In this document: in pieces, positions 3,017-32,192 of the stretch
Layout: each line of letters opens with the position of its first letter
Numbering within the stretch: position 1 is the first letter of the stretch
Assembly: GCA_050253205.1 (NCBI GenBank)
Contig: JBFWJM010000001.1
Coordinates: 1 to 43,639 of the forward strand
Origin: Desulfovibrionaceae bacterium
GTDB taxonomy: Bacteria > Desulfobacterota > Desulfovibrionia > Desulfovibrionales > Desulfovibrionaceae
Direction: 5' to 3'
DNA length: 43,639 bases
Notes under the pieces: model-generated
What the model saw: only the letters and a program-made list of their open reading frames with translations
Databases searched by the model: none
What the model was told of the DNA's origin: nothing
Made by a program: the position numbers and the translations under genes

Positions 3017-3137
3017 TTCCCACCTCGTTGGCAAACACGATGTTGAATCCGCTCATTTTTTTGATGTATTCTGACAAACTCTCGAATGGTCTTTTCCTGC
3101 ACTTCGCATGAATCGTCACATGGGTGCATCTCTAGAA

Positions 3138-3265
3138 CGCAACAATAAATTGGATGAGCTCTTGCGTTCCGTTTATTCCCGTCCGGAACAGCATTGCTCC
3201 CAGACATGCGGCAGCAGATTTTCGGGAGAGTGTTCCTTGCCGAGATGCATCACCACCGGGTCTAC
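3138..3265. repeat. 128-bp direct repeat, copy B
   Basis: See copy A; lies 90 bp downstream of the stop of the 3355-4479 gene. Confidence 0.9.
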
Positions 3266-3354
3266 GTTTCCAGTGATTCATCTTACTTCTTGTAAGTAGA
3301 GCTGCCGATGAAATCCATTTATCTTGGTCGGCATCACTCTCTGCGAATGCTATA

Positions 3355-4479
3355 TTATGGGTCGTAACGGGAAACTGTGTCCTTGATGACATTCGCAAAG
3401 CGGTAAATATCGTCCAGCGATGTAATGGGCTCCCTGGATTCGTTCTTATCAGCATCAAAAAGCCCAAGATACTTTTGAGCAGTGTTAAAATGGAATCGAC
3501 AGATTGGTTTTCGGTTGTTGTCATCCAAAAGAACACCACAATAGCTCTGCCTGTCTCGGATGGCCACGCGGGAGACATCTATGACTTCACGGAGGATCGA
3601 CTTGATCACCAGAAAGGCCTCTGTTTCATCTTCCGTGGTCACTATCTTGATGATCTCATCTCCATTTTCCTGCTCTTCTGTTTCCGCAGCCTGAGGCTCA
3701 TTATGTTTCCTGTCGGATTCCGCTCTGTTCAGGGCGCTTTTCAGGCGTTCGTCAACTCTATCGTCGATCAAATCCTTGGCGGCATGAACAACCCTGGATC
3801 GAAACTCCTTAAGAATGTTGGCCCGCAGAGGCCCATTGTGTACTTGTGAGGCAAACACTCGGACGAAATCGTCGCCGGGGGTATCAAGCTGTTCCGCGAG
3901 AAGTCGCTTAATCTGCCGCATGTACTTCAGGTTTTGTGCAGCATTCAAGGTGTTATCTTCATCAAATTGGCCCTGAGCTAGTTTTTCCAACTCTGGTATA
4001 AGGCTTTCGTCTACACTTCCGAAGTCGAACACCATGAACGGTTTTGGGTCCATAATGTTCGGTCTGTCTAAATCTGAATAGAATTCGTAAACAATTCCAT
4101 CTGTTAACACTCCAACACGAGCAGTTGGCGTATTTTGGAAATATCGATGCAGCTGATTAGCCTTTCCAGAATCGAGACATGCACCACATGTTTTGCATTC
4201 AAACAGCATGATAGGGTTGCCATCTTTCATGACAGCATAATCGACCTTTTCTTTCTTTTTTGTGCCGATGTCAGACGTAAATTCAGGTACAACCACGCGT
4301 GGGTCGAATGGATCATAACCGAGAAGCTGTAAAAAGGGTTGAATAAAAGCGTTCTTCGTCGCCTCCTCGGTGGTGATGTGCTCTCGAAGTTCCCGGATTC
4401 TGGAGGAAAGGTCCGCTACTTTGCTGGCAAACACAGGCTCGCTCCCGTTTCGAGTTGAAATCAACAAATTGAAACCCAA
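3355..4479 (-). CDS. Type I restriction enzyme HsdR N-terminal-domain (PD-(D/E)xK nuclease-like) protein, stand-alone
   Basis: 374 aa; EEATKNAFIQPFLQLLGY...VVPEF...KVDYAVMKDGNPIMLFECK matches the HSDR_N-type D...E-x-K nuclease core; no HsdM or HsdS nearby. Confidence 0.7.
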   Translation of the reverse strand: MGFNLLISTRNGSEPVFASKVADLSSRIRELREHITTEEATKNAFIQPFLQLLGYDPFDPRVVVPEFTSDIGTKKKEKVDYAVMKDGNPIMLFECKTCGACLDSGKANQLHRYFQNTPTARVGVLTDGIVYEFYSDLDRPNIMDPKPFMVFDFGSVDESLIPELEKLAQGQFDEDNTLNAAQNLKYMRQIKRLLAEQLDTPGDDFVRVFASQVHNGPLRANILKEFRSRVVHAAKDLIDDRVDERLKSALNRAESDRKHNEPQAAETEEQENGDEIIKIVTTEDETEAFLVIKSILREVIDVSRVAIRDRQSYCGVLLDDNNRKPICRFHFNTAQKYLGLFDADKNESREPITSLDDIYRFANVIKDTVSRYDP

Positions 4480-4598
4480 ATAGGGTATTTTCTACTCTCC
4501 ATACGAGGCGAATAAAGTCAAGGCTTCCGCTCAGTTTTCAGGAAAGAGTTTCAATGGTGTGTTCTGACCGAACCACCATGGCGGGAGTGCTCTCCCCA

Positions 4599-4704
4599 GA
4601 GGAATTGTTCCGGCGCGGGCCCACCACACCGAAAGACAAGGCGCAAGAAAAGGGCAGGCCGGGTGCGCGAATGGCGCGTATTCAAAATACGCGAGGGTCT
4701 GCCC
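4599..4704. repeat. Terminator-like module, copy X (gaggaattgttccggcgcg ... gggcag ... gcgtattcaaaatacgc ... ctgccc)
   Basis: Shares three blocks with 4840-4927; on the minus strand the hairpin is followed by TTTTCTT. Confidence 0.7.
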
Positions 4705-4876
4705 AGGAGCGATTGCGACCATCGCCCGAGGCGGGAAGCACAAACGGCTGCACGCCGCGAGAGCAAGACGCAAGGGCGGGCCCTGGCCGGGCGGGCATCA
4801 AGGGATCATTCCGAAAAAATCATCCGCCACAACGACCGCGAGGAATTGTTCCGGCGCGAGGCTGGCAAGGCGTAAG

Positions 4877-4927
4877 AAAAGGGCAGGATCGCTGCGTATT
4901 CAAAATACGCGAGGGTCTGCCCTTTTT
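4877..4927 (-). terminator. Rho-independent (bidirectional-looking) terminator downstream of nrdJ, copy Y of the module
   Basis: aaaaGGGCAG...(internal palindrome gcgtattcaaaatacgc)...CTGCCCttttt; T-runs on both strands. Confidence 0.7.
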
Positions 4928-4964
4928 GAAGCAACGAAGCCAGCCCCGATGCCGGGGCAATGCC

Positions 4965-7217
4965 TCAGCAGCGGGTCCAGCCGCACTTATGGCACTTCTG
5001 ACACCCCTCCTCGATGACCAGTTCCTCCCCGCAGTCCGGGCAGGTGGGGCGCACCAGGCTGCCCGTGCCGTCGGAGACGTGCTCGCCCTTCATGTAGCGG
5101 CTCTCAAAGACCCAGGCGATGGCGTCGGGGATGGACTTGCAGAGGAACTTCTTCTGGAACTTGGGGTGCTCCCCGCCGATGCCCTTGAGCTGGGCCACGA
5201 TCTCGCGGACCTCGACCCCCGAGCGCAGCGCCAGGGAGACGAGCCTGCCGATGGCCTCGGCCTTGGCCATGATGCTCGCCCCGGACTTGCCGATGGTGGC
5301 GAAGACCTCGAAGGGTCGTCCGTCCACCTCGTTGATGGTCAGGTAGAGCTCGCCCAGGCCGGTGCCGACCTTCTGGGTGAAGCCGTAGACCACGTCGGGC
5401 CGATCGCGCACCACGGAGCCGTCCTTGCCCTTGGCGTCTTTTTTCTTGTCGCCGTCTCCGGTGCAGAGCACCTGGCTCTGCTTGCAGCCGTCGCGATATA
5501 CGGTGACGCCCTTGCAGCCGGTCTCGTAGGCCTTCCAGTAGATTTCCCAGATGTCCTCGATGGTGGCCTCGTTTGGCAGGTTCACGGTCTTGGAGACGGC
5601 GTTGTCCGTGCCCTTCTGGAAGGCGGCCTGCATCTTCAGGTGCCAGAGGGGCGCGATGTCCATGGCCGTGACGAAGACGCGCTTGAGGTCATCGGAGACC
5701 ACGTCCATCTTCTGCACGGAGCCGACCTTGGCCACCTCCTCCATGAGCTTGGCGGAGTGCGCGCCCTCGTCCTTGAGCGCCTGCTCGAAGAAGGGGTTGG
5801 TCTCCACCAGCTTGTCGTTGTCCATGACGTTTCGCACGAAGGAGAGGGCGAACAGGGGCTCCACGCCCGAGGAGCAGCCCGCGATGATGGAGAGGGTGCC
5901 CGTGGGCGCGATGGTGGTGGTGGTGGCGTTGCGGTAGGGGCCGAGGTTGCGCTGGCCGTAGACGGACTCGGCATACGCCGGGAACGCGCCGCGCTCGGCC
6001 GCCAGGGTCTTGGAGGCGCTTCTGGCCTCGGCCTGGACGAACTCCATGAGCTTCTGGCCGAGGATCACGGCCTCCTGGGAGTCGTAGCCCACGCCGAGCT
6101 GGTAGAGCAGGTCGGCCCAACCCATGACCCCCAGGCCGATCTTGCGATTGGTGCGGACCATCTCCTCGATCTCGGGCAGGGGGTAGCGCGAGGCGTCGAT
6201 GACGTTATCAAGGAAGCGCACGGAGAGGTGGATGGCACCTTTGAGGCCCTCCCAGTCCACGCCGTCGCAGACGCGGGCCTTGTCCTGCACCTTGCCGAGG
6301 CAGAAGCGGCCGAGGTTGATGGACCCGAGGTTGCAGGCCTCATAGGGCAGCAGGGGCTGCTCGCCGCAGGGGTTGGTGGATTCGATCTCGCCCAGGTGCG
6401 GGGTGGGGTTGTCGCGGTTGATGCGGTCGAGGAAGACGATGCCCGGATCGCCGGACTCCCACGCCTTCTGCACGAGGATGGAATACACCTTGCGGGCGGG
6501 CAGGCGCTCAATGACCTTGCCGTTGTGCGGGGCCACGAGGTCGTACTCCTCGTCCTTTTCCACGGCGCGCATGAACCGCTCGGTGAGGCCCACGGAAAGG
6601 TTGAAGTTGTTCAGCTCGCCCTCGCGCTCCTTGGCCTTGATGAAGCGCATGATGTCCGGATGGTCCACGCGCAGGATGGCCATGTTGGCCCCGCGGCGGG
6701 TGCCGCCCTGCTTCACCTGCTCGGTGGCGGTATTGAATATCTTGAGAAACGAGATGGGCCCGGAGGCGATGCCGCCGGTGGAGCCCACGCGGCTGTCCTG
6801 CGGCCTGAGGCGCGAGAAGGAGAAGCCCGTGCCCCCGCCGGACTTGTGGATCATGGCCGCGTTCTTCACGGCGTCGAAGATCTCCTCCATGGAGTCGCCC
6901 ACAGGCAGCACGAAGCAGGCGGCCAGCTGGCCCATGTCCGTTCCCGCGTTCATGAGCGTGGGCGAGTTGGGCAAAAAGGTCCAGGAGGTCATGAGGTCGT
7001 AGAACTGCCGGGCGAGCTTGGCCGGGGTGAAGGGCGACTTCTCGTACTTGGCCTCCTCGGCGGCGATGTTGGCGGCCACGCGCCAGAACATCTCGCGCGG
7101 GGCCTCGAAGGGCACGCCCTGCTCATCCTTGCGCAGATAGCGTCGGGTGAGCACGGTCTTGGCGTTGTCGTTGAGCTTCGGTTCCGGGAGGTTGGCGGGG
7201 AGTTTTGGAGCGGACAT
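4965..7217 (-). CDS. nrdJ: Class II (adenosylcobalamin-dependent) ribonucleoside-diphosphate/triphosphate reductase
   Basis: 750 aa from MSAPKLPANLPEPKLNDNAKTVLTRRYL...; NPCGEQPL active-site motif; C-terminal Cys-rich tail CPDCG...CQKCHKCGW; start trimmed from the track ORF (7355) to the ATG at 7217. Confidence 0.92.
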   Translation of the reverse strand: MSAPKLPANLPEPKLNDNAKTVLTRRYLRKDEQGVPFEAPREMFWRVAANIAAEEAKYEKSPFTPAKLARQFYDLMTSWTFLPNSPTLMNAGTDMGQLAACFVLPVGDSMEEIFDAVKNAAMIHKSGGGTGFSFSRLRPQDSRVGSTGGIASGPISFLKIFNTATEQVKQGGTRRGANMAILRVDHPDIMRFIKAKEREGELNNFNLSVGLTERFMRAVEKDEEYDLVAPHNGKVIERLPARKVYSILVQKAWESGDPGIVFLDRINRDNPTPHLGEIESTNPCGEQPLLPYEACNLGSINLGRFCLGKVQDKARVCDGVDWEGLKGAIHLSVRFLDNVIDASRYPLPEIEEMVRTNRKIGLGVMGWADLLYQLGVGYDSQEAVILGQKLMEFVQAEARSASKTLAAERGAFPAYAESVYGQRNLGPYRNATTTTIAPTGTLSIIAGCSSGVEPLFALSFVRNVMDNDKLVETNPFFEQALKDEGAHSAKLMEEVAKVGSVQKMDVVSDDLKRVFVTAMDIAPLWHLKMQAAFQKGTDNAVSKTVNLPNEATIEDIWEIYWKAYETGCKGVTVYRDGCKQSQVLCTGDGDKKKDAKGKDGSVVRDRPDVVYGFTQKVGTGLGELYLTINEVDGRPFEVFATIGKSGASIMAKAEAIGRLVSLALRSGVEVREIVAQLKGIGGEHPKFQKKFLCKSIPDAIAWVFESRYMKGEHVSDGTGSLVRPTCPDCGEELVIEEGCQKCHKCGWTRC

Positions 7218-13071: not shown

Positions 13072-14235
13072 CTAGAAGCAGTCGATCTCGGCCACGGGCT
13101 CGGTGAGCAGGAAGGAGCCTTCGTCTATCCAGCGCTTGAGCTCGTTGGCGATCTCCAGGCTGCGGGAGTAGCTGGTGAGCGGTACGGTGGTGGTGGCCTT
13201 GCCGTCTATCTCGATGGACCCGCTCATGAGCTCCTCGTAGGTGACCTCGGCCAGGGTCCGGCCCACCCCATTGGGGTAGTCGTAGCCGTAGTCCTTCACG
13301 GGCATCTGGATGTCCGCGTTGGAGACGCCCGTGAACCAGGCGATCTCCTCATTGAGGATGGGAATGGGGATGCCCACGCCCACGGCCAGGGAGCAGCCGT
13401 AGCCCACGATGGACATGCCGCGCAGGTAGCGGGCGTTCATCTTCTTGAGGTCGCCCTTGAGCATGAGCGTGCCGGACGGGGTGGTGGGCACGCCGCGCTC
13501 GTTGCGCGGGGGTTTGGGGTTGTGCTGCGTGCCGGAGCCGATGCAGTAGCCCACGCCGCCGCCCAGGAAGATGCGCGTGCCCAGGCCGATGGTCTTGAAC
13601 TGCGGGTCGTTGAACAGGGGCGAGAGCTGGCCTGCGGTGGCGAAGTTGGCGTTGTTGCCCTTGGGCTTGAGCGGGCCCATGTAGGTGTAGATGGTGCGGC
13701 TGGTGAGGTTCACGGCCACGTTGTAGTTCTGGTAGCAGTTGCGCGGGTTGAGCAGCCAGGCCTGGGGCAGGTCCGCCAGGGTGACGTCCTTTTCCAGTTC
13801 CTTCCTGGGGTAGCAGTCCGTGCCGTAGGCCTCGGCGCGCAGGTGCACGGCCTTGCCGCGCACCAGGTCCTCGATGACATGGCCGCCGCCGTAGGCGAAG
13901 CGCCCGGGGTAGACCTTGTTCAGCGGGTCGTCCTCGGCGGGCTCGGTTGCGCCGATGTAGGCATCCACGGCGGCGATGCCCGCATAGCAGGGCACGTTGT
14001 TGAGCCAGACCTTGGAGGTTTTCATCACCGGAGGCTGCTGCCCCTGGTTGAAGAGCACGCCCGAGGAGCACATGGTGGAGAAGGTGCCGGTGGTGACCAC
14101 GTCCACTTCCCTGGCGGCCTCGGCCTTGCCCCGGCTGCGGACGATCTCCACCATCTCCTCGGCATTGACCACCACGGCCTTGCCTTTCCTGATGCGCTCG
14201 TTGATTTCCTGGATGGTCTTTTTCACCTCGGCCAC
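13072..14235 (-). CDS. COG1900/DUF39 homocysteine-biosynthesis protein (MA1821 family)
   Basis: 387 aa, GTG start with an AGGGAGGG RBS; VVTTGTF...CYAGIAAVDAYIG...FLGGGVGY pattern characteristic of the family. Confidence 0.8.
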   Translation of the reverse strand: MAEVKKTIQEINERIRKGKAVVVNAEEMVEIVRSRGKAEAAREVDVVTTGTFSTMCSSGVLFNQGQQPPVMKTSKVWLNNVPCYAGIAAVDAYIGATEPAEDDPLNKVYPGRFAYGGGHVIEDLVRGKAVHLRAEAYGTDCYPRKELEKDVTLADLPQAWLLNPRNCYQNYNVAVNLTSRTIYTYMGPLKPKGNNANFATAGQLSPLFNDPQFKTIGLGTRIFLGGGVGYCIGSGTQHNPKPPRNERGVPTTPSGTLMLKGDLKKMNARYLRGMSIVGYGCSLAVGVGIPIPILNEEIAWFTGVSNADIQMPVKDYGYDYPNGVGRTLAEVTYEELMSGSIEIDGKATTTVPLTSYSRSLEIANELKRWIDEGSFLLTEPVAEIDCF

Positions 14236-14512
14236 GGGGCCCTCCCTGTGTCGCTCGCCGACCCGAAAACCAATCCTCGAAAAGGCCGGGAGGCGTTGTC
14301 ATTTGTGCAAGCGGCGATCCTCTCTCAATTTTTTCACAAAGGCAATTTTTTTTCTCCCCAGGGGGGTTTCCAGCGGGGGAAAACTTGGCTTCGGGGCTGA
14401 AATCTGGTACAAAAAACAACCCTGGGCGCGAGCGGGGCTGGCCACAGGGCTCTCTTATTTTTTAGTATATATATTCAATGGTTACAAATACAAGAAATCG
14501 ACGACCCACATC

Positions 14513-15817
14513 GTGAAACAAGCCCTGCGCGAACACCTCCTGCAAACCTGCTCCGACAAGGAACTGGCCAGCTGGTTTGATCCGCTTTCGCTGACCGCCC
14601 CGGACGACTCCGGGCTGGTGAGCGTGTCGTTTCCGCATCCGTTCTTCGCCACCTGGTTCGAGGCGAACATGCAGGCCCGTTTCGAGGCGGAGATGCTCCA
14701 GTTTCTGGGCACGGCGGTGGAAATCCGCTACACCAACGGCGCGGGCCGCGCACGCGGGAAGGGTGAATCCCCGGCCGTGACGGCCAAGCTCGAATTCCCC
14801 TACGACAGCCAGTTCATCTTCGAGACGTTTCTGATCAACAAAAAGAACTACTTTCCCATGGCCTCGGCCAGGGAGGTGACCAAGCAGGCGGGCAGCCTGT
14901 TCAATCCGTTCGTCATCTGCGGGAAGAACGGCTCGGGCAAGACGCACCTGCTGCGCTCCATCGCCAACGAACTGAGCAAGAAGGTGGAACACAAGTCCAT
15001 CCTGCTGCTCTCCATGGACGAGCTGAACAACCTTTTCCGGGTGAGCTTCGCCGGAGACCGCTTCCGCGCGAGGGATTTCATCTGCTCCCACAACCACCTC
15101 TTCATCGACGACTTCCAACAGATCCAGAAGTACGACCAGATGCAGCAGGAGATGGTCATCCTGTTCAACCACTTCTACGACAACAAGAAGCAGATGGTCT
15201 TCGCCTGCCTGGACAAGCTCTCCAGCTACGATTTTCTCGACCCGACGCTGCTCTCGCGCCTGGAGTGGGGGCTCATCGTCAACCTCAAGCAGCCCGACCT
15301 GGAAATCCGCATCGAATACATCCAGGACCGGGCAAGGGTGAAGAAGCTGCCGCTGACCAAGGAGCAGGTCCTGACCCTGGCCCAGCGGTTCAAGGACTTC
15401 CGCTACCTGCAAGGCATCCTCATCAAGCTGGCGGCCTTCCGCGAGCTGGTGAAGAAGGAGCTGACCAAGAAGGACTTCGAGCGCATCCTCACCAACACCG
15501 AGGAAAACACCACCGAGACGCTCAACGCGGACCACGTGATCCAGGCGGTTTCCGAACATTTCGGCATGGCCGTGAAGGAGATCAAGGGCTCCAAGCGCCA
15601 CGCCCAGATCGCCCAGGCGAGGCAGGTGGCCATGTGGCTGTGCAAGAACCTCCTGCCCGTGTCGTACCCGGCGCTGGGCCGGGCCTTTGGCGGCAAGGAC
15701 CACTCCACGGTGCTCTACTCCGTCAAAAAGATCGAACAATTGAAAGATGATGACGAGGATATGAACCGATTGTTGAAAGAGTTGAAGAAGAAATGTCTCT
15801 TGCTTGGTCGCAGCTGA
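14513..15817 (+). CDS. dnaA: Chromosomal replication initiator DnaA
   Basis: GKNGSGKTHLL Walker A, IDDFQ Walker B, C-terminal DNA-binding helix ...GGKDHSTVLYSVKKIE; only an in-frame GTG (14513) is available as start, so the start is uncertain. Confidence 0.9.
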   Translation: MKQALREHLLQTCSDKELASWFDPLSLTAPDDSGLVSVSFPHPFFATWFEANMQARFEAEMLQFLGTAVEIRYTNGAGRARGKGESPAVTAKLEFPYDSQFIFETFLINKKNYFPMASAREVTKQAGSLFNPFVICGKNGSGKTHLLRSIANELSKKVEHKSILLLSMDELNNLFRVSFAGDRFRARDFICSHNHLFIDDFQQIQKYDQMQQEMVILFNHFYDNKKQMVFACLDKLSSYDFLDPTLLSRLEWGLIVNLKQPDLEIRIEYIQDRARVKKLPLTKEQVLTLAQRFKDFRYLQGILIKLAAFRELVKKELTKKDFERILTNTEENTTETLNADHVIQAVSEHFGMAVKEIKGSKRHAQIAQARQVAMWLCKNLLPVSYPALGRAFGGKDHSTVLYSVKKIEQLKDDDEDMNRLLKELKKKCLLLGRS

Positions 15818-15951
15818 CAAAAGCGCCTGTTGCGCACTTCGGCGCACCGGAAACCGACACGGGATGTTTCCAACTATAAAAATGAAAACAAGGCGTTGGC
15901 CGCGCTAGGAACAACAAGCGGCGGCTAACTACTACCACAAGGAGTATTTCT

Positions 15952-17112
15952 ATGTTCTTGAGGGTAAACCGGGACGAAATCATCGAAGGCTTGCAGAAGT
16001 CCGCGAACATCATCCCCGCCAAGACCGGAGCCGCCTTCCTGCGGACCATCTGGCTCAAATGCGAGGACGGGCGGCTGAACATCATGTCCACGGACTCCAA
16101 CCTGGAGTTCTGCGGTTCCTATGCCTGCCGCATCGAGGAGGCCGGGCTGGCCGGGGTCCAGGGGCGCGCCTTCTACGAGCTGGTGCGCAAGCTGCCCTCC
16201 GCGGAGCTGACCATCAAGACCGACCCGGACAAGCAGAACATCCTCGTGGAGCAGGGCTCCAGGAAGTACAAACTCCCCGTGAACGACGAGGAGTGGTTCC
16301 AGAAGTTCTCGGCCTTCCCGGAAAACGGCACCGTGTTCTGGTCTGGCGACTTCCTGCACGAGGTCATCGAGAAGATATCCTACTGCATATCCGACGAGGA
16401 CTCCATGGAGGCCATCGCCTGCATCAACATGGTGCCCTCCAAGGACGACGAGGGGAGCATCGAGGTCTGCGGGCTCAACGGCCACCAGTTCGCCATGATG
16501 CGCTTCGTCAACGACGACATCCACGAACTGCTGCCCGAGGAGGGCGTGCTCATCCAGAAGAAATACCTGGCGGAGCTCAAGAAATGGCTCACCGCCGACG
16601 AGATCGAGATGAACATCTCCGAGAAGCGGCTCTTCTTCCGCACCGGGGACAAGACGGAGACCTTCTCCCTGCCGCTCTCGTACTACCAGTACCCGAACTA
16701 CAACAACTTCCTGGCCCGGCTCTCGGATGACGACGTCTCCCGGCTGAGCGTGGTCCGCTCGGAGCTCATCGAGGCCCTGGAGCGCATCTCCATCTTCAAC
16801 ACCGACTCCAACCGCTGCACGCACTTCCTGTTCAAGAACGGCGAGGTGGTGCTCTACTCCCAGGGCCAGGAGACGGGCACGGCCACGGAGGCCATCGAGG
16901 CCGAGTATTCCGGCGGGCTGGAGCGCATCGCGTTTCCCACCAAGAACCTCATCGACATCCTCGGGCACTTCAGCTCCAAGCGGGTGGAGTTCGTGCTCAC
17001 CGGGGCCGAGGCCCCCAGCGGCATCACCGGGCCGGACGACGCCGAGTACCAGACCATCCTCATGCCCATGATGATCCAGGAAGAGACCTACTACACCGAA
17101 GAGGACATGTAA
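15952..17112 (+). CDS. dnaN: DNA polymerase III beta sliding clamp
   Basis: 386 aa, AAGGAG RBS; position after dnaA; typical N-terminus MFLRVNRDEIIEGLQK... Confidence 0.95.
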   Translation: MFLRVNRDEIIEGLQKSANIIPAKTGAAFLRTIWLKCEDGRLNIMSTDSNLEFCGSYACRIEEAGLAGVQGRAFYELVRKLPSAELTIKTDPDKQNILVEQGSRKYKLPVNDEEWFQKFSAFPENGTVFWSGDFLHEVIEKISYCISDEDSMEAIACINMVPSKDDEGSIEVCGLNGHQFAMMRFVNDDIHELLPEEGVLIQKKYLAELKKWLTADEIEMNISEKRLFFRTGDKTETFSLPLSYYQYPNYNNFLARLSDDDVSRLSVVRSELIEALERISIFNTDSNRCTHFLFKNGEVVLYSQGQETGTATEAIEAEYSGGLERIAFPTKNLIDILGHFSSKRVEFVLTGAEAPSGITGPDDAEYQTILMPMMIQEETYYTEEDM

Positions 17113-19509
<2,397 letters not shown>

Positions 19510-20520
19510 GCATGAGCTATTTTCTGTTCGTCGATGAGAGCGGTTTTGACCGCAAGCTGGCCCCTTACGAGGTGCTGGCCGGGGTATGCATCGAAGATCG
19601 TGAGATATGGAACCTTATCCAAAGGGTATGGGAAGCGGAAGAGCGGTTTTTCGGGATGAGGATCACCCTCGGAAAGCTCGAACTCAAGGGAAAGAAGCTG
19701 CTGAAGAGGAAAACATACCGCCTGGCATCACAAGCGGGCCTGTTTTCCTTCGAGCAGCGCAGGGAGCTGGCCGGGCAGTGTCTGATGGACGGGGCGTGCC
19801 CCTCACGTGATCAGCTGACAGCGCTGGCGCAGGCGAAAATTGCCTTTGTGGGCCATGTGTTGGAGCTTTGCGCGTCGCATCGAGTCCGTGCCTTTGCCAG
19901 CATAGTGGACAAGACGGCCGAACGGCAGGAGGGCGACTTTCTGCGCAAGGATTACGCGTATTTGTTCGAGCGGTTTTGTTACTTTCTCAATGAGCCGGAG
20001 CGTGACGGGTCGGGGATTGTCGTCTTTGATGAGCTGGACAAGGCGCAAAGCCGTATTCTCGTCAACCAGATGGCGGAATACTTCCGCAATACGGCCAGGG
20101 GCAGGATGCGCTCGTCGAGGATCGTCCCCGAGCCTTTTTTCGTTCAGCGATCTGACCACGGCGATCCAGCTAGCGGATCTGGTGGCCTACATCATCAACT
20201 GGAGCGTCCGGTTTGGAACCATGGATGAGCCAATCCGCGCGGAGCTCTGCCCGCTAGCTGATCAGGTGCTGGAGCTTCGTCACCGAACCCATCAGCAGAT
20301 CAACGGGAACGATCATTTTGTGGTTTGAAGCTTTACTCAGATTCATGACCTGAGGCCCATGGAGCAGCAATGAAAAAAGGCAATGCCAGCTTGCGCCAAC
20401 AAAGCCTCCATGAAAAAAATAGACATTTTATGTCTATCGGTCAATCCAAAATGATTACAAACGCAATTTCTCACCATGCATATAAATAATAAATTTCCAG
20501 TCAGTTATATTTGGAGGAAT
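19510..20520. other. Low-GC insert between gyrB and gyrA
   Basis: Composition drop by eye; interrupts the otherwise contiguous dnaA-dnaN-gyrB-gyrA block. Confidence 0.6.
19512..20328 (+). pseudogene. DUF3800-family gene, split by a 1-nt frameshift in a T6 run (20135-20140)
   Basis: N-terminal MSYFLFVDESGF (DUF3800 signature) in frame 1 (to 20228); the family C-terminal signature ...FSDLTTAIQLADLVAYIINW continues in the +1 frame (to 20328); removing one T gives ...PEPFSFSDLTTAIQLADLVAY. Confidence 0.65.
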
Positions 20521-23755: not shown

Positions 23756-24784
23756 GTGAGCGACCTTCTCCCTGTTCCTGATTCGCGGATAGACATCTTC
23801 AATGGACCGGATGGCGGGGTCCGGGTGGAGGTGCGCTTTCTGGACGACACGGTCTGGCTCAGCCAGAAGCTCATGGCCCAGCTCTACGGGGTCACGGTTC
23901 AGAACATCAGTCATCATCTTATAAATGTATTTCAAGAAGGGGAGCTGCCTGAAGAGGCAGTTATCAAATCTTTTTTGATAACTGCCGAGGACGGAAAACA
24001 GTACCTGACCAGGCACTACAACCTGGATGCGATCATCGCCGTGGGCTACCGGGTTCGCTCCACCGTGGGCACGCAGTTTCGACGCTGGGCCACGCAGCGG
24101 CTGCGCGAGTACATGGTCAAGGGATTCGCCATGGATGACGAGCGGCTCAAGGATCCCGGCGGTTGGGACTACTTTGACGAGCTGCTCGAACGCATTCGTT
24201 CCATCCGGGCTTCGGAAAAGCGGTTTTATCAGAAAATCAAAGATCTTTTCGTGCAGACCAGCGTTGATTACGACAAAAAATCCTCCGCAGCGCAGGATTT
24301 TTTCAAGACCATCAAAAATAAGATGCTTTTCGCCACCACGGGCAGGACCGCGGCCGAAATCATCCGCGATCGCGCCGATGCGGCCCTTCCGAACATGGGG
24401 TTGACGAGCTTCAAGGGGTCGGTGGTGCGCAAGGGCGACGTCCTGACCTCCAAAAACTACCTTACGGCCGAGGAAATCACCGCGCTGGACCGTCTCGTGG
24501 TCATGTTTCTGGATTATGCCGAAGACCGATCCGCCCGGCGCGAACGCATCACCATGGCGGAGTGGGGCGAACTCACGGACAGGTTCCTGCGATTCAACGA
24601 GCGCGAGCTGCTCTCGGGGGCGGGCAAGGATTCGCACACCACGGCGGAACGGCACGCGCACGGAGAGTACAGCCGCTTTGACGCCGCCCGGCGCAGGCGC
24701 GAGCGGGAAGCGGCAGAACTGGAAGCGGAGAAGGACTTCGAGGAAATGGCCAAGGAGGCCCTGGAGATCAATCGCCGAAAGTGA
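23756..24784 (+). CDS. RhuM-family (virulence-protein RhuM-like) protein
   Basis: GTG start with a GGGAGGAG RBS; ...WLSQKLMAQLYGVTVQNISHHL...NLDAIIAVGYRVRSTVGTQFRRWATQRLREY is the conserved RhuM core. Confidence 0.82.
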   Translation: MSDLLPVPDSRIDIFNGPDGGVRVEVRFLDDTVWLSQKLMAQLYGVTVQNISHHLINVFQEGELPEEAVIKSFLITAEDGKQYLTRHYNLDAIIAVGYRVRSTVGTQFRRWATQRLREYMVKGFAMDDERLKDPGGWDYFDELLERIRSIRASEKRFYQKIKDLFVQTSVDYDKKSSAAQDFFKTIKNKMLFATTGRTAAEIIRDRADAALPNMGLTSFKGSVVRKGDVLTSKNYLTAEEITALDRLVVMFLDYAEDRSARRERITMAEWGELTDRFLRFNERELLSGAGKDSHTTAERHAHGEYSRFDAARRRREREAAELEAEKDFEEMAKEALEINRRK

Positions 24785-24855: not shown

Positions 24856-24880
24856 TGGGCGCGAGAAAAGATGTCGGGCC

Positions 24881-24915
24881 AGTGTATATCGTGACAGTGT
24901 ATATCGTGACAGTAT
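24881..24915. repeat. 15-bp tandem repeat (agtgtatatcgtgac) x2.3
   Basis: Read directly; immediately 3' of the dapF stop. Confidence 0.85.
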
Positions 24916-24923
24916 TTTTCGGG

Positions 24924-25793
24924 CTAGTGCTTCTCGCCAACAAGGCCCACGGCTTCGAGGCTCACCTCGCCAGCGAAAACCAACGTGGCCCCGCCCTGGA
25001 GGAAGAGCGAACCTTCTTCCACGCTCACGGTGAGGGTCTCGCCGCCCGTGGTGGTGATGCGCGACCACGACCCGGTGAGGCCCAACTCGTGGGCCACCAG
25101 CTGCGCGGCGGAGACGCCCGTGCCGCAGGCGTAGGTCTCGGCCTCCACGCCCCGCTCGTAGGTCCGGCAGAGCATGGTCTCGGCGTCCATGGCCTGGACG
25201 AAGTTGATGTTGCTCCCGGCGGGCTTGAAGGCCTCGTGGTGGCGCAGGTAGGAGCCCACGGCGGGCACGTTCACGGCCTGCACGTCGGCCACGAAGACCA
25301 CCACGTGCGGCACGCCCGTGTCCACGAAGTGCACGGTGTACGGCGTGCCCTGGAAGTCGAGCTCCATGTTCAGCCTGAGGTTCTGGTACGGCGTGAGCTG
25401 CACCTTGACCTCGCCCGCGTCCGGCCCTTCGGTGAGCACCTTGGCCCGGATGTCGCCCACGTCCGTGCCGAAGATGTGCTCGGCAGGGGCGATGCCCAGC
25501 AGGTTCGCCAGCTTGGCCACGCAGCGCGAGGCGTTGCCGCACATCTCCGCGCGGGAGCCGTCGTTGTTGAAGAAGCGCCAGGAGTAGGCCTGATCCGTTC
25601 CCGGCTGGGGCTGTTCGATGAAGAAGATGCCGTCCGCGCTGATGCCGAAGGCCCGTGCGCAGAGCTTCAGGGCCCAGTCGGGCATGTCCGCCTCGGGCAG
25701 GCCGAGGGCGCGGTTGTCGATGGCCACGAAGTCGTTTCCGCAGCCTTGGAGCTTGTAGAACGGGACCGCTGTTCCTAGACCGGGGATGGGCAT
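24924..25793 (-). CDS. dapF: Diaminopimelate epimerase
   Basis: 289 aa from MPIPGLGTAVPFYKLQGCGNDFV...; second active-site Cys in YACGTG; AAGGAG RBS. Confidence 0.93.
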   Translation of the reverse strand: MPIPGLGTAVPFYKLQGCGNDFVAIDNRALGLPEADMPDWALKLCARAFGISADGIFFIEQPQPGTDQAYSWRFFNNDGSRAEMCGNASRCVAKLANLLGIAPAEHIFGTDVGDIRAKVLTEGPDAGEVKVQLTPYQNLRLNMELDFQGTPYTVHFVDTGVPHVVVFVADVQAVNVPAVGSYLRHHEAFKPAGSNINFVQAMDAETMLCRTYERGVEAETYACGTGVSAAQLVAHELGLTGSWSRITTTGGETLTVSVEEGSLFLQGGATLVFAGEVSLEAVGLVGEKH

Positions 25794-25920
25794 GGTGTTC
25801 TCCTTCCTAGTGACCCCTGGGCTGTTCTCCCAGAGTTGCACAAATACGTCAAGCCCGGTGCGGATTTCCGGGCGGGCTCGACTGGGCCACAGTTCGGATC
25901 ACAGCGCAGTCGGGGCACGG

Positions 25921-28900
25921 CTACCAAGCCACGGGCATGCGGACCTTCTGCCCGGCCTTGTTCACATAGTACACGCACCCCTCGTTCACCCCGTGGAGGT
26001 AGAGGTCGCGTGTCACGGCCACGTCCTGGCGGCAGTATTCGGTGATCAGGTCCAGGCGGCCCTGCTTCCACCATTCGAGCGCCTGGAGCCCGTCCGCGCT
26101 CTTGGCCGCACCCAGGGTGGCCTGGGCCAGGGTGTCGAGCTTGATGCGAAAGCCCATGCGCTCGTGGATGTGCGCCAGCAGGTCCAGGGTGGGCAAGGAC
26201 TGGAACCGGAAGCTGGAGAGCCCGGAGAGCACGAGGTAGTCGAATCGGATGACGTTGAACCCGATGACCAGGTCGCACTCGGCCAGGTGCTCGGCCAGGT
26301 CGTCGATACGGTCCTCCTCGTAGTCGCTGAAGGCCTCGGAGGCCGAATCCCAGACGCAGGCGACGGACACGCCCATGCGGTCCGCTCGGTTCCAGCCGCC
26401 CACCTCCTGGGCGCTGCGGCGGGTTTCAATGTCCAGCACGGCGTAGCGGCGGGGCAGGGGCATGTCGGGCTCCTTGCGGACGGCGGCCCGGGCGGCGGCG
26501 GGCGCATCGGTTTGGGGTTTGGGTGGCTGTGCAGCTTGCGGGGAGGCCGCTTCAGGACCTGTGTCGGGCGTCGCGGACGTTGCGGACGTCGCGGGCGTCG
26601 CGGACGTTGCGGACGTCGTGGATGTCGCGGAAGTTGATGGCGTGGCGGTCGTTTCCGGCTCGGGCACGTCCGCAGGGTCCAGGGTTCCTGCGGCCAGGGC
26701 CTCGGCCAGGAACAGGGCCGCGCGCTTGTCGATGGGCCGGTTGCCCGAGCCGCACTTGGGCGAGTGCACACAGGAGGGGCAGCCCAGCTCGCACTCGCAG
26801 TCGCGCACGGTCCTGGCCGTGGTCAGGAGCAGGTCGTCCGCCCGGGCAAAGGCCTGGCGCGCGAGCCCCGCGCCCCCGGGCAGGCCGTCGTAGATGAACA
26901 CCGCCGGAGCGCCCACCTGCGGATGGTGCGGCGTGGAGATGCCGCCCAGGTCGTTTCTGTCCGTGAGCACGAGCAGGGGAAGGATGCCGATGGCCGCGTG
27001 CTCCAGCGCGTGGATGCCGCCCATGAAGTGCAGGTACTCGTCCTCGGCCCTGCGGCGCAGTGCGTCCGGCACCACGAACCAGAGACCCTCGGTCTCGAAG
27101 ACCAGCGGCGGCAGGTCGAGGCCCTGGATGCCCATGAGCGTGCCGCCGCGCACGGCGCGCTTCTCGTAGCCCGTGACCTCCTCGGTGACGCGCAGCCTGC
27201 CCAGGAAGAAGGCCGCGCCCAGGGCCTCCCGACGAGCAATTATTTCCAGAATTTCCGTTGACTTGCTCGTGCGAGCGCGGGTGTAATACTTGACCCTGGC
27301 CTGCCGGGCGCGCACGGTTCCGGTCTCCATGTCCAGCTCGCTGACCACGTAGGTCCGGCCCCGATGGAGGTACACGGCCCCGGGGTGCGTCTCCTTGCAG
27401 GCGCGGTGGTGGTCGATGCTGCCGATGCGCTCGCCCGTGTCCTGGTCCTCGATGTGCATGGCCCGGCCCGAGCCGCGCAGGTCCACGTCGCGCTGGGGGC
27501 GCTTGCGCTGGGTGACGATCTCCGTGACCTCGGGCTTCGCCCCGGCGCCCTTGTCCTTTCTGGTGCACCGCTGGGCCACCACCTCGAAGAGCTCGCCCCG
27601 GGCCACCAGCTCCTGGGCCTGCTCAGCCATGCCGGGCTCGGCCAGGTAGGGCTCGCCGGGGCGAAGCGTCATCTCCGCCGCCGCGCACACGAGGTGGCGC
27701 GAGAGGATCACGGGGTTCAGCGGATTGAGCACGGCGGATTCCGGCGGCCGGGCGAAGAAGTCCTCGGGGTGGCGCATGAAGTACTGGTCCAGGGCGTCCT
27801 CCCCGGCGATGAGCGCCACGGCGGAGTCGCGTCTGGCGCGGCCCACGCGCCCGCCCCGCTGCCAGGTGGCCATGACGGAACCGGGGTAGCCCACCAGGAT
27901 GCAGAGGTCGAGCCCGCCGATGTCGATGCCGAGCTCCAGGGCCGAGGTGGAGATGACCGCCAGCAGCTCGCCCGAGCTCATGCGCGCCTCGATGTCGCGC
28001 CGTTCTTCCGGCAAAAAGCCCGCCCGGTACGCGGAGATGCGGTCCTTGAACTGGCCGCCGCGCTCCCCGGCCCAGAGGGCGATGAGCTCCGTGAGCCGCC
28101 GGGATTGGGTGTAGACGATGGTCCGGAGGTCGCGCGCCAGGGCGGACTGGAGCAGCAGGATGGCGGCCTGGGCCGGGCTGTCGTGCGGATTGAGGAAGAC
28201 CATGTGCTGCTCGCTGCGGCCCGCGCCGGACTCCGAAACCTCGACCACGGGCAGGCCGGTGAGCCGCTGGCAGAGCTCCGCCGGGTTGCCCACCGTGGCC
28301 GAGCAGAAGATGAACACGGGGCTTGCGCCCCAGGCCCGGCAGATGCGCAGCAGCCTGCGGAACACCTGGGCCATGTGCGAGCCCATGACGCCCCGGTAGG
28401 TGTGCACCTCGTCCACCACCACGTGGGTCAGGTTGGCGAAGAGCTCGGCCCAGGAGTTGTGGTGCGGCAGGAGCGCCAGGTGCAGCATCTCCGGGTTGGT
28501 GATGAGCGCGCCGGGCGGGTTGTCGCGTATCTTGCGGCGGAAGTGGGGCGTGGTGTCGCCGTCGTAGATGGCCGCGCGGGGGCGCTGGGCCTCGTCCAGG
28601 TGCGGCGGCAGCTCAAGGCCTCCGGCCAGCTCGGTGAAGGCGCGCAACTGGTCCTGGGCCAGGGCCTTGAGCGGGAAGAGGTAGAGCGCTCGGGAGGAGG
28701 GCTCGGCCAGGAGCTGCTCCAGCACGGGCAGGTTGTAGGTAAGGGTCTTGCCCGAGGCCGTGGGCGTGGCCACCACCACGTTGCGCCCGCTTCTGGCCAG
28801 GTCGATGGCCCGGCACTGGTGGGAGTAAAGTTTTTCGATGCCCATGCGGGCCAGCAGCTCGCCCAGCGCCCTGGGCAGGGGCCGCACGGGCTCCTCCAGG

Positions 28901-29007
28901 CTCGCGGGGGAGCCGGGCAGGGTCCGGTGGTGCACCACCTGCCGCCCGAGCCGCTCGGAAGCGAGCAGGGCCTCGACGTATTCGTGGATGGGGTCGGTCT
29001 TGGGCAT
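25921..29007 (-). CDS. MrfA/YprA-like DEAD/DEAH-box SF2 helicase with DUF1998 Cys4 module, fused to a C-terminal MrfB/YprB-like DEDDy (RNase H-fold) exonuclease
   Basis: 1028 aa single ORF; TPTASGKT (I), DEVH (II), SAT (III); CECELGCPSCVHSPKCGSGNRPIDK; low-complexity TTATPSTSATSTTSATSATPATSATSATP linker; then VLDIET, GFNVIRFDY, YCRQDVAVTRDLY exonuclease motifs. Confidence 0.9.
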   Translation of the reverse strand: MPKTDPIHEYVEALLASERLGRQVVHHRTLPGSPASLEEPVRPLPRALGELLARMGIEKLYSHQCRAIDLARSGRNVVVATPTASGKTLTYNLPVLEQLLAEPSSRALYLFPLKALAQDQLRAFTELAGGLELPPHLDEAQRPRAAIYDGDTTPHFRRKIRDNPPGALITNPEMLHLALLPHHNSWAELFANLTHVVVDEVHTYRGVMGSHMAQVFRRLLRICRAWGASPVFIFCSATVGNPAELCQRLTGLPVVEVSESGAGRSEQHMVFLNPHDSPAQAAILLLQSALARDLRTIVYTQSRRLTELIALWAGERGGQFKDRISAYRAGFLPEERRDIEARMSSGELLAVISTSALELGIDIGGLDLCILVGYPGSVMATWQRGGRVGRARRDSAVALIAGEDALDQYFMRHPEDFFARPPESAVLNPLNPVILSRHLVCAAAEMTLRPGEPYLAEPGMAEQAQELVARGELFEVVAQRCTRKDKGAGAKPEVTEIVTQRKRPQRDVDLRGSGRAMHIEDQDTGERIGSIDHHRACKETHPGAVYLHRGRTYVVSELDMETGTVRARQARVKYYTRARTSKSTEILEIIARREALGAAFFLGRLRVTEEVTGYEKRAVRGGTLMGIQGLDLPPLVFETEGLWFVVPDALRRRAEDEYLHFMGGIHALEHAAIGILPLLVLTDRNDLGGISTPHHPQVGAPAVFIYDGLPGGAGLARQAFARADDLLLTTARTVRDCECELGCPSCVHSPKCGSGNRPIDKRAALFLAEALAAGTLDPADVPEPETTATPSTSATSTTSATSATPATSATSATPDTGPEAASPQAAQPPKPQTDAPAAARAAVRKEPDMPLPRRYAVLDIETRRSAQEVGGWNRADRMGVSVACVWDSASEAFSDYEEDRIDDLAEHLAECDLVIGFNVIRFDYLVLSGLSSFRFQSLPTLDLLAHIHERMGFRIKLDTLAQATLGAAKSADGLQALEWWKQGRLDLITEYCRQDVAVTRDLYLHGVNEGCVYYVNKAGQKVRMPVAW
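26565..26655. repeat. 9-bp tandem repeat (CGTYGCGGA on the plus strand) x7-9 inside the helicase gene, encoding the T/S/A/P linker
   Basis: cgtcgcgga cgttgcgga cgtcgcggg cgtcgcgga cgttgcgga cgtcgtgga tgtcgcgga ... Confidence 0.85.
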
Positions 29008-29010
29008 GGG

Positions 29011-29586
29011 TTACTGCTGGGCCAAGAGAGACCGAGCCGCCCGACGCACTCCGGAAATGAAGACGTTGAAACTGTGGGAGGTGTTCCTTTCCAGAGAGAG
29101 GCGGGTCCCCAGGTCTTTGGCTCCCCTGCGCTTGGAGTATTCGGGCACCAGCCGGGCGAGTTCCCGCGAGGGGGACCCGAGGCGGTCGGGGTTCTTGAAC
29201 AGTTTATTCCGTTGTTTTCCGGCCAGTCCCTTGGCTCCCGTAGCTGATTCCACGGCCGCAAGATCACCGAGAAACCAGGACTCCAGCTCGCGGCAGGCGA
29301 TGCGCACCAGCAGCGGCTCCCTCCCGGCCTCGCGGCAGAGCCGCAGGAGGTTTTCCTTCACGCAGGCGCAGTCGCCGCTGTCCTGGTCCCGGACAATGAT
29401 GAACGCGTCTTCCGGGTAGAGCCAGCCTTTCAATTTGAGGGGAATGGACTTTTCCAGGTCCTGTTTTCCCTTGTGGGCGATCAGCACATAGTCCGCAGGG
29501 GTGGTTCCCGGCAACAGGCGCGGCAGGAGCCCGAGCAGGCAGTCCTTCATGGAATCCTCTTCCAGAAGGAAGACGAGCCGCGGCAT
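29011..29586 (-). CDS. DUF4276-like protein with Toprim-like acidic signature (candidate nuclease partner of the upstream ATPase)
   Basis: 191 aa; MPRLVFLLEEDS..., IIVRDQDSGD, RELESWFLGD; ATG overlaps the ATPase TGA (ATGA at 29583-29586). Confidence 0.75.
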   Translation of the reverse strand: MPRLVFLLEEDSMKDCLLGLLPRLLPGTTPADYVLIAHKGKQDLEKSIPLKLKGWLYPEDAFIIVRDQDSGDCACVKENLLRLCREAGREPLLVRIACRELESWFLGDLAAVESATGAKGLAGKQRNKLFKNPDRLGSPSRELARLVPEYSKRRGAKDLGTRLSLERNTSHSFNVFISGVRRAARSLLAQQ

Positions 29587-30767
29587 CAGAACCCGCCCCC
29601 GAGAAGCCCCTGCTGCCAGAGCCACCCGGGCTTGTCTCCGGCGGCGACAAGGCTGCGGATGTTCTCGTCGTCGGCTGCGCGGGAGATTCGCGTTATGCCG
29701 TCTTTCTTCTCCAGGCAGTAGATGTTCTCGATGTCCACGTCGTTCAGAAAATCCGGCGAGTGGGTGGTGACGAAGACCTGCCCGCCTCGCCTGGCGTAGC
29801 TCTCGAACTCCTCGGCCAGCTCTCCCAGGAGCTTGGGGTAGAGCTGGTTTTCCGGTTCCTCCACGCAGAGCAGGGGGTGCGGCGCGGGGTCGTGCAGCAG
29901 CAGCAGGTAGGCGAACATCTTGATGGTGCCGTCGGAGACCCACTGGTCGATGAACGGGTCCTTGAAGGCGGAATCGTTGAACTTGAGCATGAGCCGGCCG
30001 TCGCCCGTTGGCGCGGCCTCGATGTTGTGCACGCCGGGCACCCGCTCCCGCATCTTCTGAAGCACCAGGGCGAAGGTTTCCGGGTGGTGTTCGCGCATGA
30101 AGTCGGCGACCTGGTGCAGGTTGTCTCCCTTGCGGGAAAGATGCTCGGCATACCCGGCGGGCTTGCTGCCGCGCGCCTGGTCGATGTGAAAATCGGAGAC
30201 GTGCCAGTTCTCCAGCATGGTTCGGAACGCGCTCGCGGCCTTGAACTTCTGGAACTGGCCAAGGCCCTTGACGGCGAGGATGTCCGGGGAGCCGAGGTGC
30301 TGCGGTTCCCTGTCGAGCTCCTCGTCCTCCTTGCTGAAGTCTTCCTCGTTGGTTACGGCGTACCCGGAGCCGTCCGAGAAATCGAGAAAGTGAAAAGGAG
30401 CCCCGTTGCGCCCTCGTTTGTAGCGCAGTATCTCCCTTCGGACGGTTACCTTGCCGTCGAGAAGGCCTATCTGGAGAACATACGTCACCAGGCGGTTCGC
30501 CCCGGCGATTTCAAGCCGGAATTTGAGCTCCAGCTCCATGTCCTCGTCCTCGTGGCCGCGCGAGACGACCTCCCGGAACCCGCCGCGCCGGGACAGGGCC
30601 GAGCGGACGTTCTCAGCCAGTGCATCCTTGAGGAATCCGAACACGTCGAACAGGGTCGTCTTGCCGCTGCCGTTGGCACCGAGCAGCACGCAGTATGATG
30701 GGATATCCGACAGCGTCGTATCTTGGAAGACCTTGAAATTCTTGAGCCGGATGGCCTCGATGCGCAT
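29586..30767 (-). CDS. ABC/OLD-type AAA ATPase (AAA_21/AAA_15-like)
   Basis: 393 aa; MRIEAIRLKNFKVF..., Walker A LLGANGSGKTT, Walker B/D-loop LLCVEEPENQLYP, H-loop VFVTTHSPDF. Confidence 0.88.
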   Translation of the reverse strand: MRIEAIRLKNFKVFQDTTLSDIPSYCVLLGANGSGKTTLFDVFGFLKDALAENVRSALSRRGGFREVVSRGHEDEDMELELKFRLEIAGANRLVTYVLQIGLLDGKVTVRREILRYKRGRNGAPFHFLDFSDGSGYAVTNEEDFSKEDEELDREPQHLGSPDILAVKGLGQFQKFKAASAFRTMLENWHVSDFHIDQARGSKPAGYAEHLSRKGDNLHQVADFMREHHPETFALVLQKMRERVPGVHNIEAAPTGDGRLMLKFNDSAFKDPFIDQWVSDGTIKMFAYLLLLHDPAPHPLLCVEEPENQLYPKLLGELAEEFESYARRGGQVFVTTHSPDFLNDVDIENIYCLEKKDGITRISRAADDENIRSLVAAGDKPGWLWQQGLLGGGF

Positions 30768-30809
30768 GTTTCCCCCTTGGGAGGTTCCCGCCGATGAAGC
30801 GCCGCCCGG

Positions 30810-32192
<1,383 letters not shown>

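Follow-up and report, generated by a model that had tools for sequence, protein, structure and literature searches.

Three genes that follow one another on the minus strand of a 43,639-nucleotide stretch of Desulfovibrionaceae DNA (contig JBFWJM010000001.1 of assembly GCA_050253205.1; the whole stretch is called the window below) raise the question of whether an ABC-type ATPase, a small Toprim-like protein of the DUF4276 family and a helicase fused to an exonuclease work together as one system. The initial annotation of this DNA had suggested that the trio may be an undescribed three-gene defence or repair system. The comparisons described here do not bear that out, the first two genes and the helicase being independent of each other across genomes. 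Very probably the locus holds two separate units, each already described, that are neighbours by position only, and only within one clade: a module of the candidate system HEC-01, lodged in an insertion hot spot beside a repair helicase. The genes and the two junctions between them are:

29586-30767, minus strand: gene 1, the ATPase of PADLOC candidate system HEC-01 (AAA_21/AAA_15), an open reading frame (ORF) of 393 aa
29011-29586, minus strand: gene 2, the DUF4276 protein, putative OLD-like Toprim nuclease component of HEC-01, 191 aa
25921-29007, minus strand: gene 3, predicted MrfA/YprA-family superfamily 2 (SF2) helicase with a fused 3'-5' exonuclease, 1028 aa
29584-29588, minus strand: TGATG junction of the ATPase stop and DUF4276 start, read from the sequence
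29005-29013, minus strand: TAA-CCC-ATG junction of DUF4276 and the helicase, read from the sequence

Using the PADLOC library of hidden Markov models (HMMs), gene 1 was matched over residues 1-391 of 395 by the HEC-01 model PDLC04144 (E = 4.1e-192); its next-best matches are all to other HEC-01 ATPase models, and it is far weaker against the models for AriA, mad3, AbiLi, NsnB and GajA. Gene 2 was matched by PDLC04143 over residues 1-188 of 190 (E = 1.9e-67), and all 13 of its PADLOC matches are to HEC-01 models. The pair has what is looked for in HEC-01, namely an ATPase matching the HEC-01 HMM and an adjoining, co-oriented TOPRIM/DUF4276 gene matching the partner HMM, and it resembles that system in consisting of two adjacent genes of one orientation with end-to-end HMM matches and with a Toprim fold and metal-binding residues in the nuclease. 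The earlier suggestion of an undescribed system is not supported at this point, since PADLOC names genes 1 and 2 over their full length. HEC-01, or Hma-embedded candidate 01, is a candidate defence system that combines an ABC ATPase with a TOPRIM protein and was encountered inside Hma systems (Payne et al., bioRxiv 10.1101/2024.01.29.577857); the window pair differs in lying in neither an Hma nor a restriction-modification (R-M) system but in a spacer between core genes near oriC. In the PDLC04143/PDLC04144 sub-type the PADLOC labels are the reverse of those used in the other HEC-01 models, with the ATPase called HEC-01B and the DUF4276 protein HEC-01A, and this could mislead automated annotation.

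The domain calls of the initial annotation stood up well. Pfam searches with AAA_21/AAA_15, DUF4276, DEAD, Helicase_C, DUF1998 (now MZB) and RNase_H_2 all gave matches: gene 1 matches AAA_21 (6e-32) and AAA_15, in line with the ABC/OLD-type ATPase proposed for it, and gene 2 matches DUF4276 at 1.6e-9, which exceeds the curated cutoff. The motifs listed for the three proteins (GANGSGKT, LLCVEEPE, TTHSP, VFLLEEDS, VRDQDSGD and ELESWFLGD) are all present, as is the Cys cluster CECELGCPSCVHSPKC. Searches of gene 1 and gene 2 against the sequences of PDB chains gave no match, nor did the gene 3 exonuclease domain, used as a single sequence or as a profile, against a set of chains that should include the published MrfB core; a comparison of folds was therefore needed for gene 2 and for that exonuclease. 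The AlphaFold2 (AF2) model of gene 2 has a pLDDT of 92.6, and its sole significant fold match in the PDB is 6NK8_A (E = 3.9e-4, probability 1.0), the Toprim-containing C-terminal region of the B. pseudomallei OLD protein. Residues E9, E10, D67, D69, E100, E102 and D108 are invariant in an alignment of 40 homologues. Together, the acidic residues -- among them the E9/E10, D67xD69 and E100/E102 groups -- and the match of the predicted structure to the OLD Toprim region point to gene 2 being a Toprim-type nuclease, as had been proposed. For DUF4276 this identity was published before: the family has been placed among the Toprim domains, and it supplies MAD4 in the MADS system (PMC12065111). Between the window and a contig 97% identical to it (L001), gene 1 differs at 22 nucleotides, all of them synonymous, with no amino acid changes; the gene is under strong purifying selection.

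Whether the pair needs the helicase was approached from both sides. From the side of the pair, the comparison took in 80 GTDB species loci (L007-L086), each with 10-kb flanks and an ATPase sharing 60-66% identity with gene 1. A DUF4276 gene comes directly after the ATPase in 79 of the 80 species, while neither the MZB region nor the exonuclease domain of gene 3 was found within 10 kb of the pair in any of them; the single weak match to a generic helicase core is 7 kb away, on the other strand. Instead, the pair is followed by HsdR in 7 of 76 loci and preceded by HsdS in 7 of 75 and by DUF1156 in 3 of 75, its remaining neighbours being unrelated housekeeping genes such as those for tRNA synthetases, APS kinase, gyrA, HSP90 and PFK. 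The pair stands on its own as a module and does not have the helicase for a partner; the earlier claim that the two are wired together does not survive, the pair adjoining unrelated genes elsewhere. The initial annotation had itself said that assignment to a named system by an existing tool, or association of the pair with unrelated genes in other genomes, would speak against a single new system, and both are what was found.

Relatives of gene 1 with 60-68% identity occur in Cyanobacteria, Burkholderiales, Xanthomonas, Endozoicomonas, Bacteroidales, Verrucomicrobia, Planctomycetes, Campylobacterota and others, which looks like a distribution of the horizontal-transfer type. No integrase or repeats that would explain the mobility of the pair were seen in L007-L086. 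A scan of viral contigs yielded the ATPase at four loci only, and the idea of a typically phage-borne module was dropped on that ground. About 9% of the 80 loci have the pair inserted in a type I R-M operon, with hsdS on one side of it and hsdR on the other. For a mobile module this HEC-01 clade is unusually conserved, its ATPase being 60-66% identical from Cyanobacteria to Planctomycetes.

From the side of the helicase, the genes that flank the trio are the reference points:

30810-32192, minus strand: upstream flank, sigma-54-dependent response regulator (RR), identified by NCBIfam
24924-25841, minus strand: downstream flank, dapF (diaminopimelate epimerase), a housekeeping gene, TIGR00652 4.6e-68

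Full-length orthologues of the helicase-exonuclease fusion, 58-77% identical, are found in Paucidesulfovibrio, Pseudodesulfovibrio, Salidesulfovibrio, Humidesulfovibrio, Maridesulfovibrio and others, and their identities follow Desulfovibrionaceae taxonomy. A metagenome scan supplied 80 further orthologue loci, 59 of them with at least 2 kb of upstream sequence; the pair is upstream of the helicase in none of the 59. The context of the helicase is itself conserved across orthologues as histidine kinase (HK)-RR-helicase(-dapF). Paucidesulfovibrio longus (L004) and a contig from a metagenome-assembled genome (L006) both have the order pgi-HK-RR-helicase-dapF, with an RR-helicase spacer of 78 nt in the former and 22 nt in the latter and neither the ATPase nor DUF4276 in it; RR directly adjoins the helicase, again with no pair, in L100, L102, L126 and L128 as well, and dapF follows the helicase in L004, L006 and L170. 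The helicase-exonuclease is autonomous and vertically inherited.

The spacer into which the pair is set in the window (29008-30809) holds other cargo in other lineages: among L092, L094, L097, L098 and L101 are AAA_14 with DUF4143 (PDC-S01), a HicB-like gene, an ATP-grasp gene, a 336-aa ORF and a 4.9-kb multi-gene block. As the cargo between RR and helicase differs by lineage, the spacer behaves as a variable insertion hot spot. No direct or inverted repeats flank the pair at the insert boundaries (about 29008 and 30770-30810), which thus show neither traces of a transposon nor a duplicated target site. Scans of the window for Rfam families and tRNAs found nothing, and a tRNA-type integration site is accordingly absent from it. 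The whole block of pgi, HK, RR, pair, helicase and dapF lies close to dnaN-gyrB-gyrA.

Gene 3 is, from its domains and similarities, a MrfA/YprA helicase of the DNA-repair type and a core gene of the Desulfovibrionaceae. Its Pfam domains are DEAD, Helicase_C, WHD_HRQ1, MZB (formerly DUF1998) and RNase_H_2, with these parts marked:

27772-28878, minus strand: helicase core (DEAD + Helicase_C), aa ~44-412, from Pfam
26767-27006, minus strand: MZB (MrfA Zn-binding) Cys4 module, aa 668-747, Pfam MZB 1.1e-21
26565-26636, minus strand: tandem 9/27-nt repeat in a Thr/Ser/Ala-rich linker between MZB and exonuclease, seen as a repeat in the sequence
25924-26481, minus strand: predicted C-terminal DEDDy 3'-5' exonuclease, aa 843-1028, Pfam RNase_H_2 3.6e-6

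Residues 38-749 align with chain residues 31-732 of 6ZNP, the B. subtilis YprA/MrfA structure, at E = 4.4e-143, which covers the whole chain. In the helicase core the motifs ATPTASGKT and DEVH are invariant in alignment A3, as are C737, C739, C743, C746 and C752 in the alignment of orthologues, and in the exonuclease D859, E861, D923, Y991 and D995 are invariant too. The AF2 model of the exonuclease domain has a pLDDT of 92.5, and its top Foldseek matches are proofreading domains of family-B DNA polymerases (E ~3e-6, TM 0.60-0.66), the same structural neighbours that were found for MrfB (Manthei et al., PMC11194089). The description of gene 3 as an SF2 helicase with a DUF1998 Cys4 module and a DEDDy exonuclease is thus upheld by Pfam, by the invariant residues, by 6ZNP and by the exonuclease fold. 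An exact-sequence look-up of gene 3 found it not to be on record. The alignment with L001 breaks at the linker repeat, the product being 1028 aa in the window and 1015 aa in L001, and an ungapped ratio of non-synonymous to synonymous changes computed for residues 1-780 was set aside, an indel having made it invalid.

MrfAB (YprAB) is a mitomycin-repair helicase and exonuclease (Burby & Simmons, bioRxiv 10.1101/426304; PMC7797055), and YprA helicases fused to MrfB/YprB homologues fall in the DNA-repair branch of their family (bioRxiv 10.1101/2025.09.15.676423). Gene 3 has the DEXH SF2 core, the winged helix, the OB-CON-MZB Cys4 arrangement and the full-length similarity that go with MrfA, and, like MrfAB, an attached DEDD exonuclease whose fold resembles those of family-B polymerase proofreading domains. 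Unlike MrfB, this exonuclease is fused through the repeat-rich linker, has Tyr (DEDDy) in place of His (DEDDh), is without a TPR domain and gives no sequence match to PDB chains. The YprA helicases of the defence branch (DISARM, Druantia, Dpd, ARMADA) are accompanied by DrmB, DrmC or a methylase, by Dru or Dpd proteins, or by a PLD or Vsr nuclease, and none of these belongs to the conserved context of gene 3, HK-RR-helicase(-dapF); the PADLOC matches of gene 3 itself (BrxH, DruE, DpdJ, DrmA) span only the helicase core or the MZB segment.

The tight packing that had suggested a cassette is real in the window, in that all three ORFs are on the minus strand and the distance of 3 nt between the DUF4276 stop and the helicase ATG can be read directly: TAA (29013-29011), then CCC, then ATG (29007-29005). 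The junction of the first two genes had been given as a 4-nt ATGA overlap at 29583-29586 and needs correcting, as the ATPase TGA (29588-29586) and the DUF4276 ATG (29586-29584) have only one base in common, a 1-nt overlap within TGATG. Such an abutting stop and start is also seen in L087, L088 and L089. The second junction varies, from 3 nt in the window to 24 nt in L089 and 92-94 nt in L088 and L170/L171. These last, which are Paucidesulfovibrio-like, retain the native helicase leader common to P. longus, and in L006 a GGAG precedes the same conserved helicase start (MP..PIHEY); in the window neither the leader nor its Shine-Dalgarno is present and the 3' end of gene 2 occupies that place. 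With the Shine-Dalgarno replaced by the insertion, translation of the helicase in the window probably depends on ribosomes that terminate at gene 2. A link in expression between gene 2 and the helicase does not by itself imply a common function. In a scan of 24.8-35.2 kb, the minus strand from pgi to dapF showed no promoter-like sites, and its terminator-like sites were no commoner than chance, a result that bears neither way on a single transcript. The two units are probably co-transcribed only because of where the insertion took place.

The trio calls to mind several known systems. PARIS also has a separate AAA_15/21 ABC ATPase and a small Toprim effector; it is triggered by Ocr and targets tRNA-Lys. 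The match of gene 1 to the AriA model PDLC02980 (3.8e-33) is, however, some 160 orders of magnitude weaker than that to HEC-01, gene 2 is a DUF4276 and not a DUF4435 protein like AriB, and no AriB model is among the PADLOC matches. MADS pairs an ATPase with DUF4276, and gene 1 does match the NCBIfam MAD3 and PADLOC mad3 models, but it reaches only 123.3 bits against the MAD3 equivalog NF047739, for which the cutoff is 420, and neither a methyltransferase nor any other MADS gene is beside the pair, the neighbours being pgi, HK, RR, the helicase and dapF. Gabija has an ATPase, a Toprim nuclease and a helicase in one co-oriented string, as here, but its GajA is a fusion where the window has ATPase and Toprim split, and the GajA model gives a partial match only (2.2e-16); gene 3 is an SF2 helicase of the YprA type (DEAD/Helicase_C/MZB), unlike the SF1 UvrD-like GajB, and it is no conserved partner of the pair, being absent beside it in all 80 other species. 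The pair was accordingly rejected as PARIS, Gabija or MADS on the AriB, GajA/GajB, MAD3-cutoff and MADS-operon points.

The trio is not unique to the window genome; it is found in a few related lineages in which the pair is now present, now absent. About five Paucidesulfovibrio-related lineages have the pair at the same RR-helicase site (the window, L087, L088, L089 and L170/L171), so that one recent insertion peculiar to the window genome was rejected as an explanation, the site being shared by L087, L088, L089 and L170. L170 has the exact synteny of P. longus plus the pair. L088 has the pair and L004 has not, their RRs being 96% and their helicases 91% identical; likewise L089 has it and L006 has not. 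In L087 a gene of the opposite strand lies between pair and helicase: in the region 3330-4800 of that contig a remnant of the helicase 5' end (ATGCCCAAACCCGGCCCCACCCATTAA) comes right after the DUF4276 stop and is followed by the opposite-strand gene and then by the helicase. The contig record gives the intervening gene as Acyl_transf_3 (the ORF called here had no Pfam match), and it looks like a secondary insertion at the gene 2/helicase junction. The G+C content at third codon positions (GC3) is 0.85 in gene 1 and 0.78 in gene 2, as against 0.92-0.96 in the flanking genes, and it is likewise lower for the pair in L087, L088 and L089; from this low GC3, the pair is of foreign origin.

Several points weigh against seeing the neighbourhood as positional. 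The RR-pair-helicase order has been kept in at least five distinct lineages, and the identities among their ATPases (80-84% between the window, L087 and L089; 70-72% with L088) mirror those of the host genes, which argues for an old, vertically inherited insertion. On this evidence the pair has stayed at the site through some 25-30% protein divergence, which is long for a mobile defence module. Gene 1 shows the strong constraint against L001 noted above, and the helicase in the window, with no ribosome-binding site of its own and apparently coupled to gene 2, would have its expression linked to that of the pair. In addition, the anti-phage activity of HEC-01 itself is weakly established. It is the retained order, the matching divergence of pair and host genes and the purifying selection on gene 1, together with the single strand, the probable coupling of gene 2 to gene 3 and the known action of YprA-family helicases in DISARM, Druantia and Dpd (bioRxiv 10.1101/2025.09.15.676423), that would favour the trio acting as one system within the Desulfovibrionaceae clade, where an ATPase-gated Toprim nuclease would nick or cut target DNA and the helicase-exonuclease would either degrade the target from the nick, in a Gabija- or Cas3-like manner, or repair self-inflicted damage. 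Such a system is nonetheless very unlikely: a helicase of this kind is at 0/80 HEC-01 loci of other taxa and the pair at 0/59 helicase loci, sister lineages have cleanly lost the pair and kept the helicase, the spacing ranges from 3 to 94 nt and is interrupted in L087, unrelated cargo occupies the same spacer elsewhere, and gene 3 belongs to the repair-type MrfA group with PADLOC matches that cover only a generic helicase core. A looser form, in which the two units have become functionally interdependent in the Paucidesulfovibrio-related clade, with the helicase-exonuclease processing Toprim nicks or buffering self-damage by the nuclease, is highly improbable, and the comparative data require no lineage-specific link between pair and helicase; if there were one, it would make a lineage-specific defence with its own dedicated repair or processing system.

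The other alternative leaves the helicase a mere neighbour and sees in the pair no immune system but a mobile element that is selfish, of the addiction type or non-defensive in some other way, such as a nuclease that acts like a toxin and is kept in check by its ATPase; it would persist because it is difficult to lose. In the original E. coli assay no protection by HEC-01 was seen (bioRxiv 10.1101/2024.01.29.577857), though another representative did protect E. coli B from one or more of the phages T4, T5 and T7 (bioRxiv 10.1101/2024.09.26.614923). Most of the 76 loci lie among housekeeping genes and not in obvious defence islands, yet ~10-13% are inside type I R-M or DUF1156 (Hma-type) operons, and the closest characterized relatives -- PARIS AriA, MAD3/MAD4, AbiL and Menshen NsnB -- are all defence components. 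The near absence of the pair from viral contigs and the HicB-type toxin-antitoxin gene in the same spacer of another lineage would suit a selfish element, while the clean loss of the pair in sister lineages argues against strong addiction. On balance a non-defensive module is unlikely, and a HEC-01 unit placed by insertion beside an unrelated repair gene is the preferred reading; of the initial annotation, the anatomy and the domain calls hold, and the treatment of the three genes as one conserved cassette does not.

If that reading is right, the HEC-01 unit would join an ABC-type ATPase, by translational coupling, to a metal-dependent nuclease of the OLD-like Toprim (DUF4276) kind. Judging from PARIS, OLD and Gabija, the most likely role of the ATPase is that of a sensor and regulator, which would keep the nuclease silent until infection is signalled, after which the Toprim nuclease would cleave nucleic acid as the effector. 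Gene 3 would be a 3'-5' SF2 helicase with an MZB canopy and, beyond a flexible linker, a DEDDy 3'-5' exonuclease, and it most likely unwinds and excises damaged DNA in the manner of MrfAB. The pair probably entered the short RR-helicase spacer in an ancestor of the Paucidesulfovibrio-related clade and was later lost in some descendants; in the lineage of the window the spacer between gene 2 and the helicase would have collapsed to 3 nt.

Elsewhere in the window, a RhuM-family gene (23756-24784, plus strand) is situated between dapF and the TPR lipoprotein/gyrA block. Its match to PDC-S05, a single-gene candidate of PADLOC, has E = 1.7e-139; one representative of that candidate reportedly gave ~1000-fold protection (bioRxiv 10.1101/2024.09.26.614923). 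P. longus (L004) has no such gene in its syntenic region. The intergenic region between RhuM and dapF holds a perfect 15-nt tandem repeat (CAGTGTATATCGTGA, 2.3 copies) at 24880-24913, which is overlapped by a promoter-like site on the plus strand at 24891-24918. Between gyrB and gyrA is a DUF3800 gene (19512-20370, plus strand) with no PADLOC model match; it aligns with the intact 287-aa copy of L001 in two frames, 19512-20177 and 20134-20370, which indicates a frameshift and with it either a pseudogene or a sequencing error. The G+C content, ~0.65-0.72 in the background, falls to 0.48-0.52 at 3001-5000, a stretch that may be foreign DNA, and to 0.57-0.59 at 14001-16000, just upstream of dnaN (15952-17112), the expected place of dnaA/oriC.

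The main value of these results is the removal of a false lead: a trio that resembles a new variation on the logic of Gabija or PARIS proves to be a known pair next to a known repair fusion. For the Desulfovibrionaceae, the spacer between the response regulator and the helicase emerges as a place where small cargo, be it defence, toxin-antitoxin or accessory genes, has inserted repeatedly. The HEC-01 clade to which the pair belongs, conserved at 60-68% identity across phyla, always paired and under purifying selection, would be a reasonable target for work on the function of HEC-01.

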